Source: a virus
Lineage: Duplodnaviria > Heunggongvirae > Uroviricota > Caudoviricetes
DNA length: 10,818 nucleotides
Virus record (IMG/VR): IMGVR_UViG_3300029816_000030
Reading direction: 5' to 3' (one strand)
In this document: piece by piece, positions 5,440 through 10,293 of the stretch
How the letters are laid out: each line of letters begins with the position of its first letter
Position numbering within the stretch: the first letter of the stretch is position 1
The notes under the pieces: model-generated
Seen by the model: the letters and a program-made list of their open reading frames with translations, nothing else
What the model was told of the DNA's origin: nothing
Databases searched by the model: none
Program-made: the position numbers and the translations under genes

Positions 5440-5655
5440 TTACTCTCCCCGTGCAGCCTTACGCTTGTCTTCTCTGATTTTGAAGTACAGATTTGTCAGA
5501 TAAGTCAGGAAGCCCAGAACCAGACTCCCCAGTACACCAATCGCAGCCCACTGTGACGGACTGACCTGATCAAGCCACTGTAAAAACCAGTAGCCAGCAC
5601 TGCCTGCGGAGGTGCCGTAGGCAATGCCCGTTGAAATTTTGTCCATGGATTTCAT
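5440..5655 (-). CDS. S: class II holin/pinholin of phage 21 S type with dual-start motif
   Basis: 71 aa, [63 protein letters not shown]...; Met1-Lys2-Ser3-Met4 dual start as in the S21 antiholin/holin pair; strong GGAGGTGA Shine-Dalgarno. Confidence 0.9.
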
Positions 5656-5948: not shown

Positions 5949-6023
<75 letters not shown>

Positions 6024-6139
6024 ATCCTGGAACTCGGCTACCTGATTTTCATTCTGCACTGAATATCGAGAGAAGCTCTCTTTATTCGAGCCGGTAAGCG
6101 AACTTATCGTCTCGGGCTACGCCATCGCGTGGCCGAAAT

Positions 6140-6224
<85 letters not shown>

Positions 6225-6232
6225 GGACTTGA

Positions 6233-6308
<76 letters not shown>

Positions 6309-6310
6309 AC

Positions 6311-6387
6311 TGGACCGCCACCGGGGACTCGAACCTCGCACACTCAACTTAAAGGGTTGACGCTCTTTCCTGATGAGCTAGTGGCGG
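6311..6387 (-). tRNA. atypical tRNA or tRNA-like gene (anticodon loop CCUUUAA, predicted anticodon UUU/Lys, with C33 and C1-G72)
   Basis: 77 nt, CCGCCACTAGCTCATCAGGAAAGAGCGTCAACCCTTTAAGTTGAGTGTGCGAGGTTCGAGTCCCCGGTGGCGGTCCA; perfect 7-bp acceptor stem, D stem GCTC/GAGC, anticodon stem TCAAC/GTTGA, T loop TTCGAGT, one A-C mismatch in the T stem, encoded CCA. Position 33 is C rather than the near-invariant U. Confidence 0.5.
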
Positions 6388-6388
6388 C

Positions 6389-6464
6389 TGGTGGCCCTTG
6401 CTGGATTTGAACCAGCGACCTGGCGATTATGAGTCGCTCGCTCTCACCACTGAGCTAAAGGGCC
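6389..6464 (-). tRNA. tRNA with CAU anticodon, ileX/ileZ-like (probable tRNA-Ile2 reading AUA after lysidine modification; elongator Met not excluded)
   Basis: 76 nt, GGCCCTTTAGCTCAGTGGTGAGAGCGAGCGACTCATAATCGCCAGGTCGCTGGTTCAAATCCAGCAAGGGCCACCA; anticodon arm core GCGACUCAUAAUCGC and acceptor C4-G69/C5-G68 match E. coli ileX as I recall it. Confidence 0.85.
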
Positions 6465-6473
6465 GGGCGCAGG

Positions 6474-6502
6474 ATAATAACGTTACGAAATCAATGTTGC
6501 AA
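6474..6502 (-). promoter_or_regulatory. sigma70-type promoter driving the tRNA cluster
   Basis: Minus strand reads TTGCAA (-35, 6502-6497), 17-bp spacer, TATTAT (-10, 6479-6474), then GC-rich discriminator CCTGCGCCC directly abutting the first tRNA 5' end at 6464. Confidence 0.5.
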
Positions 6503-6565: not shown

Positions 6566-6593
6566 GCACAAAAAACCCGCTTGTGGGCGGGTT
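6566..6593 (-). terminator. rho-independent terminator (tR'-like) downstream of the late promoter; hairpin with A-run and T-run flanks, possibly bidirectional
   Basis: AACCCGC-ttgtgg-GCGGGTT hairpin at 6574-6593; on the minus strand it is followed by TTTTTTGTG and on the plus strand by TTTGTTTGCTTTT. Confidence 0.6.
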
Positions 6594-6646
6594 TTGTTTG
6601 CTTTTGCCATCACGTACAAAATCGGCAAAATATCAGATTTGCATGA

Positions 6647-6675
6647 AATATATGCCTTTCAATCTACTTTTGCAA
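6647..6675 (-). promoter_or_regulatory. late promoter pR'-like, with a downstream -10-like pause element (putative Q-loading region)
   Basis: Minus strand: -35 TTGCAA (6675-6670, inside the 3' end of the Q-like gene), 17-bp spacer, -10 TATATT (6652-6647); then TGATATTTT (6635-6627), an extended -10-like element in the initial transcribed region; terminator about 50-70 nt downstream. Confidence 0.45.
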
Positions 6676-7348
6676 CACTTTGCTTTGAAAATGCCGCCTT
6701 TTGTTTTGAACGTGTTCTCATTACAAACAATAAAGCCTCACTATCCAGTCGGTGAAAAATGTGTTTCATTGCAACCCAGTGACGAGTAAATGTTTTGGAC
6801 CAGTTTTTAGTTGTCACTCCCGCCAGTAATGCCAGCTCCTGGTATTCATAACCTTCCCCACCAAAAAGTTCTGCTTTTACTGCCTGCGCCGCCAGCCAGA
6901 TTAATTTTTTCAGGCGTTCCTGCGTTTTCCCTGCAATTTTTTTGGTACCGGATTGAGTATTAAATTCATTCCACGCCCACTGTGTTATCGCGATCTGATA
7001 TTCCCAACAAATACTCCCGCTGTAACACCACAACAACCAGGCTTTATGATGTTCTTCAAGAGACAGAACAGCCCGCCGCCACGATGATGTCGAAAACTCA
7101 ACCGGACTGACGAGAGGAATTGACGTCCCCTTCGCCAGCGATTGCTTTCCCGGGATTGGTGGATTATCCCGCGTTATCATTTTTCCAGTCACTTCATCGC
7201 GGTACCGGATTTTTTTACGCCTGTAACGCCCTGTATCAAACATGGCATTCTCCTGCCAGGCCTCAAGCTGCCCTTTTGTTGATCCACTCAAATCGGCGGT
7301 GGCAATCATGAGTTGCTCACGAACAAACTGTAAATACTGGTTATTCAT
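6659..7348 (-). CDS. putative late-gene antiterminator Q (QuuQ-like)
   Basis: 229-aa ORF, ATG overlapping the rusA stop (ATGA); immediately upstream of a pR'-like promoter, short terminated transcript and the lysis genes. Assignment is mainly positional; the sequence was not confirmed by search. Confidence 0.5.
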   Translation of the reverse strand: MNNQYLQFVREQLMIATADLSGSTKGQLEAWQENAMFDTGRYRRKKIRYRDEVTGKMITRDNPPIPGKQSLAKGTSIPLVSPVEFSTSSWRRAVLSLEEHHKAWLLWCYSGSICWEYQIAITQWAWNEFNTQSGTKKIAGKTQERLKKLIWLAAQAVKAELFGGEGYEYQELALLAGVTTKNWSKTFTRHWVAMKHIFHRLDSEALLFVMRTRSKQKAAFSKQSVAKVD

Positions 7349-9213: not shown

Positions 9214-9369
9214 TTACTCCTCAGGTTCGTAAGCTGTGAAGACAGCGACCTCCGTCTGGCCGGTTCGGATTCGTACCTCGCAGAGGTCTTTCCTCGTTAC
9301 CAGTGCCGTCACTATGACGGTTAAACAGATGACGATCAGGGCGATTAACATCGCCTTTTGCTGCTTCAT
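9214..9369 (-). CDS. hokD: Hok/Gef-family type I toxin (HokD/RelF-like, 51 aa)
   Basis: MKQQKAMLIALIVICLTVIVTALVTRKDLCEVRIRTGQTEVAVFTAYEPEE matches HokD/RelF as I recall it; ATG at 9369 preceded by AAGGAG Shine-Dalgarno; the ORF track's 70-aa version (to 9426) is an in-frame upstream extension. Confidence 0.8.
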   Translation of the reverse strand: MKQQKAMLIALIVICLTVIVTALVTRKDLCEVRIRTGQTEVAVFTAYEPEE

Positions 9370-9545
9370 AGCCTGCTTCTCCTTGCCTTTCGGCACGTAA
9401 GAGGCTAACCTACATGTGTTCAGCATGGATTGAGCCTCAGATTAATGTTAAGCGTCTTGCAGGACGCGTAATGTTAACTGGGGCTTTTCTCTATCTGCCT
9501 TTTGGTGTTCATGCCTGAGGCAGATAGCCTCAAGCACCCGCAGCA

Positions 9546-9606: not shown

Positions 9607-10293
9607 TCACTCCTTCTCTTCTTTTCCGTAGTGGAGTTGGCCAATTTTGATAAGAGGGCGCCCCTGAGATTTGCGGTGTAGATTGGTATCGCGCAGAGAA
9701 TACACACAGCCACAATATTCCTGCTGATAGAATTTTTCGCGCTTGCTGATTTCAATCATACGGGACGAGCCGCCCTGCTTGCGCCAGTTATAATCCCAGT
9801 ACACCATACCCGGATAATGCGCAACAGCTCGCCGCCCACACTCGTTAACCTGCTGCATATTTTTCCAGCGTGAAATGCCCAGTGAACTGCTGATCACACT
9901 GAAACCATTTTCAGCAGCGTACAACGCTGTCCGCTCAAAACGCATGTCAAAACACATGGTACAACGGATCCCCCTCTCAGGCTCCCATTCCATTCCTTTG
10001 GCACGTTCAAACCAGTTGTCGGTGTCGTAATCAGCATCGATAAACGGCACGCCGTGTTGTTCAGCAAAGCGAATATTTTCATCCTTACGAATTAAATACT
10101 CTTTCTGAGGATGAATGTTCGGGTTGTAGAAAAAGATGGTGTAGTCGATTCCCGAGGCCTGAAGCGCCTCCATCACTTCACCGGAACATGGAGCACAGCA
10201 AGAGTGCAGTAGTAGTTTGTTTGCCCCGTTTGGGAGCTCCAATTTAGGCCGTTTGAAATCAGCAATAGTCATAAATATTTTTATTGGGGTCAT
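9607..10293 (-). CDS. QueH-like (DUF208) putative epoxyqueuosine reductase
   Basis: 228-aa ORF, ATG start (alternative ATG at codon 8); N-terminal [11 protein letters not shown] and C-terminal EYCGCVYS cysteine motifs as I recall for DUF208/QueH; no clear Shine-Dalgarno; flanked by 153-bp and 180-bp non-coding gaps. Confidence 0.5.

Follow-up and report, generated by a model that had tools for sequence, protein, structure and literature searches.

Introduction

Does a prophage gene whose anticodon reads as lysine serve as a lysine tRNA? This question is raised by a 77-nt gene with anticodon UUU on the minus strand of a 10,818-nt stretch of viral DNA (IMG/VR record IMGVR_UViG_3300029816_000030), which is called the window throughout. 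Several hundred RefSeq and DDBJ records label this gene tRNA-Lys by its anticodon alone. A first-pass annotation of the window left three options for it: a degenerate pseudo-tRNA, a tRNA with unusual decoding, or a tRNA-like regulatory RNA. The choice between them matters in a wider context. The defence systems PARIS and P2-OLD attack tRNA-Lys(UUU) and tRNA-Thr(UGU) and exclude lambdoid phages, and at this locus UUU stands on a foreign tRNA body beside a tRNA-Thr(UGU).

The tRNA cluster in the prophage late region

On its minus strand the window reads as the late region of a lambdoid prophage (E. coli). Its genes are, in order, QueH gene, hok/sok, DUF968 gene, rusA, Q, five tRNAs, holin, lysozyme, Rz1, HNH endonuclease and terminase genes, so that the five-tRNA cluster sits between the Q antiterminator and the lysis genes. 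The features around the cluster are as follows.

6659–7348, minus strand: late-gene antiterminator Q, directly upstream of the tRNA cluster (Pfam Phage_antiter_Q, 2.4e-92; homologous prophage annotation)
6572–6595, no strand assigned: G+C-rich hairpin between Q and the tRNAs (consensus match only)
6474–6502, minus strand: match to a sigma-70-like promoter, TTGCAA-17-TATTAT, whose end lies about 10 nt before the first tRNA (consensus match only)
6389–6464, minus strand: tRNA(CAU), tRNA-Ile2/ileZ-type, upstream of the gene studied here (ARAGORN, Rfam)
6311–6387, minus strand: candidate argN-family tRNA gene, 77 nt, the gene studied here (ARAGORN, Rfam, sequence, homology alignment)
6233–6308, minus strand: tRNA-Thr(UGU), same sequence as chromosomal thrU (ARAGORN, Rfam, sequence comparison)
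6140–6224, minus strand: tRNA-Tyr(GUA), same sequence as chromosomal tyrU (ARAGORN, sequence comparison)
5949–6023, minus strand: tRNA-Gly(UCC), same sequence as chromosomal glyT (ARAGORN, sequence comparison)
5440–5655, minus strand: class II holin, first lysis gene downstream of the tRNAs (homologous prophage annotation)

The scan listed the hairpin at 6572–6595 on the plus strand; on the minus strand it is followed by six T, and it could be a terminator that is overridden by Q. The promoter scan found 3 sites against 1.5 expected, and the cluster tRNAs might be expressed in the lysogen besides being part of the late transcript. The CAU tRNA at 6389–6464 was called Met by ARAGORN, is annotated by PGAP as tRNA-Ile in related prophages, and has a homologue named ileZ in Stx-phage records. 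We label it a lysidine-type tRNA-Ile2 (ileZ); in the open reading frames of the window the frequency of ATA codons is 10.9 per 1000.

The Thr-Tyr-(116-nt spacer)-Gly block at 5949–6308 on the minus strand matches the thrU-tyrU-glyT operon of E. coli K-12 at 100% identity, including the spacer. The prophage has therefore captured part of a host tRNA operon. In most related prophages tyrU and the spacer are precisely deleted, and the full tRNA layout of the window recurs in just 2–3 metagenome contigs. Downstream of the Thr tRNA, two IMG/VR loci (L035 and L129) retain tyrU only as its 5' half. Both are cut at the same base inside the anticodon loop, and the unrelated DNA that follows differs between them, which looks like a recombination or insertion breakpoint within the tRNA. 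In 8–9 IMG/VR loci the Gly tRNA, the fourth in the cluster, carries the compensatory changes C6U and G66A, by which the acceptor pair is kept. This suggests that the captured glyT copy is still structurally constrained, unlike the gene at 6311–6387.

Two other loci of the prophage were recorded. The gene at 9607–10293 (minus strand) encodes the epoxyqueuosine reductase QueH (Pfam PF02677, E = 1.1e-65), which modifies the wobble base of tRNAs with GUN anticodons, and the tRNA cluster of the same prophage includes tRNA-Tyr(GUA). The sok antitoxin RNA of a hok/sok type I toxin-antitoxin system is present in full at 9364–9539 (minus strand; Rfam RF01794, 120.5 bits), and hokD is annotated at the sok position in a homologous prophage.

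Sequence and fold of the gene

ARAGORN, one of the scoring tools named in the first-pass annotation, called tRNA-Lys(ttt) of 77 nt at 6311–6387 on the minus strand. The Rfam tRNA model RF00005 scored the gene at 44.4 bits (E = 5.9e-7; gathering threshold, 29), the lowest score among the five tRNAs of the cluster, all of which pass the model. The acceptor stem, CCGCCAC/GUGGCGG, pairs at 7/7 positions beginning with C1-G72 and is followed by U73 and an encoded CCA. The D arm is GCUC/GAGC with G18, G19 and A20, the anticodon stem is UCAAC/GUUGA including C31-G39, and the T loop is UUCGAGU. The anticodon loop C32 C33 U34 U35 U36 A37 A38 (CCUUUAA) corresponds to window positions 6355–6349, with C33 at base 6354 and U35 at base 6352. 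Thus position 33, where the U of the U-turn is nearly universal, is occupied by C. A different register of the anticodon stem that would supply U33 was sought and rejected, because no consistent pairing resulted.

These data bear out most of what had been described at first pass, namely a 77-nt cloverleaf-type gene with loop CCUUUAA, C33, anticodon UUU, C1-G72, an encoded CCA and a perfect 7-bp acceptor stem, packed 1–2 nt from its neighbours. The spacers are 1 nt to the upstream tRNA (6389–6464) and 2 nt to the downstream tRNA (6233–6308). This packing had been taken to argue that the gene is transcribed and processed; it does suggest co-transcription and processing, but it does not demonstrate decoding. 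The T arm, which had been called normal, is not entirely so. The T stem is not fully paired, as cmscan flagged an A51·C63 mismatch. For the bare RNA the minimum free energy fold (−25.0 kcal/mol, z = −1.46) is not the cloverleaf (−22.3 kcal/mol), a failing that is shared by many genuine tRNAs; the mismatch puts the cloverleaf 2.7 kcal/mol above the minimum.

Descent from the argN family of tRNA-Arg

The gene is 80–90% identical to the tRNA-Arg genes found in the same slot, which are argN of Stx phages and its relatives with anticodon UCU. All relatives at this level of identity are tRNA-Arg genes, and no similarity pointing to descent from a tRNA-Lys was found. The exact 77-nt sequence is annotated as tRNA-Lys in many E. 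coli prophages, and relatives at 96–97% identity are often without annotation. In the alignment C1-G72, U73 and A20 are common to the whole argN family, and A20 is invariant there. The loop is CUUCUAA in the nearest tRNA-Arg(UCU) relatives and CUUCGAA in argN, so that CCUUUAA differs from the former by just U33C and C35U. The Arg relatives score 43–56 bits with Rfam, and argN of O157, which is annotated as tRNA-Arg, has the same T-stem mismatch and scores 43.0 bits. The low Rfam score and the C1-G72 pair were considered as marks of an abnormal gene and rejected as such, since both are traits of the family. The C1-G72 pair had been singled out as a peculiarity of this gene but is present in every argN-family homologue.

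By homology, then, the gene is a tRNA-Arg of the argN type and not a lysine tRNA. Because its body is that of an argN-type tRNA-Arg, the label 'Lys' rests on the anticodon alone. The prediction of anticodon UUU was correct. A literature search on the ileZ/argN/argO cluster returned nothing relevant.

The anticodon loop across genomes and in a sister lineage

The conservation of C33 in homologues was examined in 5426 complete E. coli genomes, IMG/VR and a metagenome collection. C33 was present in 82/82 pattern-selected copies and in 37/37 metagenome copies. None of the three collections contained a copy in which the gene's backbone bears the ancestral loop or just one of the two changes; the positive control for this search in the metagenome collection found 37 contigs. 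C33 and U35 are therefore fixed throughout the lineage, and C33 is not a private mutation of this copy. The first-pass annotation had stated that ordinary homologues together with a non-conserved mutation would speak against an atypical tRNA. The homologues are indeed ordinary tRNA-Arg genes, but the two loop changes are conserved in the whole lineage. In a collection with one genome per species, the gene occurred only in E. coli and Shigella flexneri genomes.

About 20 genomes (for example E. coli 95-3322 and the IMG/VR locus L161) represent a rare sister lineage with an argN-family tRNA(UUU) whose loop is CUUUUAU. This tRNA resembles the gene in the window in its 91% identity, UUU anticodon, D loop, C31-G39, U73, position after tRNA-Ile2 and annotation as tRNA-Lys. 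Differences are the canonical U33, a T stem without mismatches, U4-A69 as a compensated pair, U38 in place of A38 and, in some copies, an 8-nt loop. Since U35 is common to both lineages, the change from UCU to UUU most likely came first and U33C second. The 8-nt anticodon loop, CUUUUUAU, is found in the sister copies of E. coli PG20180057, M18 and A39 (L264, L265 and L266) and is probably the result of homopolymer slippage. ARAGORN reads it as a four-base anticodon UUUU, and 2/3 of these copies are still annotated as tRNA-Lys.

UUU has a second, independent origin in the cluster. In four IMG/VR loci (L057, L085, L109 and L113) the third tRNA is thrU-like, with UGU changed to UUU plus A26G on a body with A73; the four are identical over the stretch compared and may represent one event. 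The argN-derived gene in these loci carries U8C.

Damaged alleles and wrecked copies

At least 95% identity to the gene was found in about 750 records from the 5426 complete E. coli genomes. Among the E. coli records 279 are intact, 165 carry C4U/U8C/C11U and 222 carry a one-base deletion in the D stem together with C70U. Further lesions that damage the core (U8C or the D-stem deletion) are thus present in over half of the E. coli copies. PGAP annotation was absent from every inspected copy of both damaged types, and at E ≤ 0.01 the Rfam tRNA model missed the decayed variants sampled from each type. Copies in IMG/VR and metagenomes have further lesions, which include A9G, G24A, G72A, a second T-stem mismatch and deletion of the anticodon arm. 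The metagenome sample had the same allele spectrum as the genomes, plus G72A and the second T-stem mismatch. A few variant copies have G73. In the IMG/VR loci, all substitutions seen in the acceptor and T-arm stems preserve pairing as a wobble or repair a pair.

No other single allele is as common as the intact sequence. Prophages whose flanks are mosaic carry it with 100% identity, and it occurs in phages that have been induced and are viable, among them vB_EcoM-606R7. No phage 21 record was found among the matches listed for the gene.

We surveyed the slot in about 100 IMG/VR loci anchored on the end of tRNA-Ile2. A clean argN occupies it in only about half of them. About 27 of the loci hold an argN relic of 80 nt whose anticodon arm and T loop are scrambled and for which ARAGORN makes no call. 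In this relic (for example in L166, L160 and L204) the arm and loop have given way to unrelated sequence (…GAGCAGACGACACGAUAACAGGGUUGUUGG…GGGGGCGGGUCCCC…), while the CCA and the two acceptor strands survive. Three loci (L173, L197 and L240) have argN/argO chimeras, three copies of the UUU gene are without the anticodon arm and one has G24A. The slot after ileZ in lambdoid prophages holds argN copies at every stage of decay.

Rate of divergence

The raw diversity of the gene is 2–7 times that of its neighbours, but the adjoining host-derived Thr and Gly copies are polymorphic as well, and weak constraint is not unique to this gene. The raw comparison was therefore set aside as evidence of decay in favour of a flank-controlled one, in which haplotype pairs with a homologous upstream non-coding flank were compared at the same loci. 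In this sample, which rests on a few old haplotypes and few independent events and required an intact anticodon arm, divergence was 0.025 for the non-coding flank, 0.001 for tRNA-Ile2 and 0.016 for the gene, or about 0.022 over the 55 positions that were not fixed by the search pattern. The only tightly conserved tRNA of the cluster is tRNA-Ile2, which is identical in 62/66 loci. The gene diverges about 15–20 times faster than tRNA-Ile2 and about as fast as the flanking non-coding DNA; it drifts at roughly the non-coding rate. A nearly neutral rate and structure-breaking lesions are the marks of a tRNA pseudogene, and the gene has both, within a pattern-conditioned sample of few independent events.

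Predicted charging and decoding

In E. coli ArgRS the main determinants are A20 and C35, of which A20 is the strongest, and U/G36 also contributes (PMC9976931). The gene keeps A20 and U36, but C35 is lost to U35, which predicts a poor ArgRS substrate. LysRS requires U34-U36 and A73, and any other base at position 73 lowers its activity (PMC9976931). In addition, a change from A31-U39 to C31-G39 lowers the kcat/Km of lysylation about 100-fold (PMC1483225). The gene has the UUU anticodon but U73 instead of A73, and it has C31-G39. It is thus predicted to be a poor substrate of LysRS too, because of U73 and C31-G39. C33 by itself is not decisive, because yeast tRNA-Leu(GAG) has a natural C33 at minimal functional cost (PMC13492127). 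The motif 36-UAA-38, which is needed for t6A37 (PMC13276492), is kept.

Discussion

Our analysis indicates that the gene at 6311–6387 is probably a decaying, decoding-impaired relic of the phage argN tRNA-Arg family that is annotated as tRNA-Lys only by its anticodon, and that it probably does not serve as a lysine tRNA. Of the three options left at first pass, the degenerate pseudo-tRNA is favoured by the Arg homologues, the loss of U33 and C35, the additional lesions and the rate of divergence. An ancestral argN-family gene after ileZ and downstream of Q would have changed its anticodon from UCU to UUU by C35U, and the universal U33 would then have become C in the lineage of this gene. With the acceptor/T-arm half intact, the RNA is probably still co-transcribed with the adjoining tRNAs and released by RNase P and 3' trimming. 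As a decoder it would be an identity orphan, with C35 lost, U73 and C31-G39 against LysRS, a weak T stem and no U33. It is thus probably a dispensable, decaying pseudo-tRNA that rides with a successful prophage module. Points against this reading are the prevalence and uniformity of the intact allele, its occurrence in viable phages, the stem substitutions that keep pairing, the polymorphism of the Thr and Gly copies, the tolerance of C33 in yeast tRNA-Leu(GAG), and the T-stem mismatch and similar Rfam score of O157 argN.

A different explanation is suggested by the tRNA-targeting defences. The prime targets of PARIS AriB are tRNA-Lys(UUU) and tRNA-Thr(UGU). P2-OLD has tRNA-Thr(UGU) as its primary target and also cleaves tRNA-Lys(UUU). 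Phage tRNAs with these Lys(UUU) and Thr(UGU) anticodons rescue infection, and lambdoid phage 21 has a protective tRNA-Thr(UGU) (PMC12409363, PMC12445682, PMC11464382). PrrC cleaves 3' of U33 (PMC2610378). The gene might therefore be a functional stand-in that reads AAA/AAG on a tRNA-Arg body when PARIS AriB, P2-OLD or PrrC destroys host tRNA-Lys(UUU). It could be weakly charged with Lys via U34-U36, or with Arg via A20, the latter giving a conservative Lys-to-Arg substitution. We consider this unlikely, although several observations are in keeping with it. The gene adjoins tRNA-Thr(UGU). Judged from sequence only, it is without the AriB site U36-A-A-U39-C40|A41, having G39-U40-U41 instead, and a change of U39 abolishes cleavage (PMC12409363); it is also without the paired CNG motifs that P2-OLD requires, having C28-A-A and U40-U-G (PMC12445682). 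It has C33 where the PrrC target has U33, the sensitivity of PrrC to base 33 being an assumption. UUU arose again in the cluster, on the thrU body at four loci, and the sister lineage combines UUU with the canonical U33, a perfect T stem and the compensated U4-A69 pair. The retained 36-UAA-38 motif and the tolerance of C33 in yeast tRNA-Leu(GAG) are also compatible with function. These points are suggestive but circumstantial.

Other results argue against such a replacement. Lysylation is predicted to be poor because of U73 and C31-G39, and arginylation because C35 is missing (PMC9976931, PMC1483225). Copies with U8C or the D-stem deletion persist and form the majority in E. coli genomes, and the gene diverges at about the rate of non-coding DNA. 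The sister lineage slips to an 8-nt loop and is without A38. The Thr tRNA in the window has the host thrU sequence and is therefore not a resistant variant, and the four Thr-to-UUU loci may go back to a single event. If the gene were nevertheless a stand-in, it would represent a new route to replacement tRNAs, in which the anticodon of a non-target tRNA is shifted, and lambdoid phages would keep translating AAA/AAG under defence. That the gene is an anti-defence tRNA whose anticodon arm and C33 hide it from AriB, P2-OLD and PrrC, possibly inserting Arg for Lys via A20, seems to us quite improbable. In one IMG/VR locus (L089) the Thr(UGU) allele carries G42C/U43C, which destroys the CNG motif at 40–42 and shortens the anticodon stem. 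Loss of a CNG motif and a shortened anticodon stem are features of phage tRNA-Thr that have been reported for resistance to P2-OLD (PMC12445682).

Persistence of the acceptor/T-arm half could also mean that the gene is a non-decoding, tRNA-shaped processing signal, which releases tRNA-Ile2 and tRNA-Thr from the polycistronic transcript. The acceptor/T-arm half would guide RNase P to a cut 1 nt downstream of the tRNA-Ile2 CCA, and 3' maturation to a point 2 nt short of tRNA-Thr. The spacers of just 1–2 nt would suit such a role. Nearly all wrecked derivatives in the slot, including the scrambled and arm-deleted ones, keep the acceptor strands and the CCA; damage clusters in the D arm and the anticodon region, and changes in the acceptor and T stems keep pairing. 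However, internal deletions would spare the ends even in the absence of selection. Some loci are without the element, or have argN/argO chimeras with acceptor strands that cannot pair, and G72A in metagenomes breaks the first pair. Moreover, tRNA 3' ends can be made in other ways in E. coli, for example by RNase E and exonucleases. We therefore doubt that the gene is kept as a processing signal. A recoding tRNA, in which C33 shifts the U-turn so that U35-U36-A37 reads UAA as an ochre suppressor, or in which A-rich codons are frameshifted, is hardly credible and was rejected: we found nothing in its favour beyond the unusual loop and the 8-nt sister loop read as a four-base anticodon, a shifted register in a 7-nt loop has no precedent that we are aware of, the late genes look ordinary with no sign of in-frame stops that need read-through, and the same evidence of decay applies.

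The closest known systems are argN of Stx lambdoid phages (ileZ-argN-argO downstream of Q) and its UCU relatives, which share with the gene the slot after tRNA-Ile2 (CAU), C1-G72, U73, A20 and length, and in the case of the UCU relatives the anticodon stem. The gene differs from this family in lacking the universal U33 and the ArgRS determinant C35. Downstream of it lies the captured host thrU-(tyrU)-glyT, whereas argO lies downstream of Stx argN. The pseudo-tRNA genes pawZ and ptwF in E. coli K-12 prophages, which we take to be tRNA-derived relics in prophage DNA like the gene described here, are presumably fragments at integration sites, whereas this gene is a full-length cloverleaf within a tRNA operon.

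Like tRNA-Lys(UUU) of T5, which acts against PARIS AriB, and tRNA-Thr(UGU) of phage 21 and other phages, which acts against P2-OLD, the gene is phage-encoded and has a targeted anticodon. It also resembles nuclease-resistant phage tRNAs in that bases of its anticodon arm are changed at published recognition sites (PMC12409363, PMC12445682). In contrast to it, the T5 and phage 21 tRNAs are bona fide Lys and Thr tRNAs with demonstrated rescue and a canonical U33; the gene has an Arg body, predicted poor charging and a population signature of decay. C33 in an otherwise cloverleaf tRNA is shared with eukaryotic initiator tRNA-Met and yeast tRNA-Leu(GAG) (PMC5041475, PMC13492127). Those eukaryotic tRNAs are conserved, expressed and functional, whereas the gene at 6311–6387 belongs to a bacterial prophage and has further damaged alleles.
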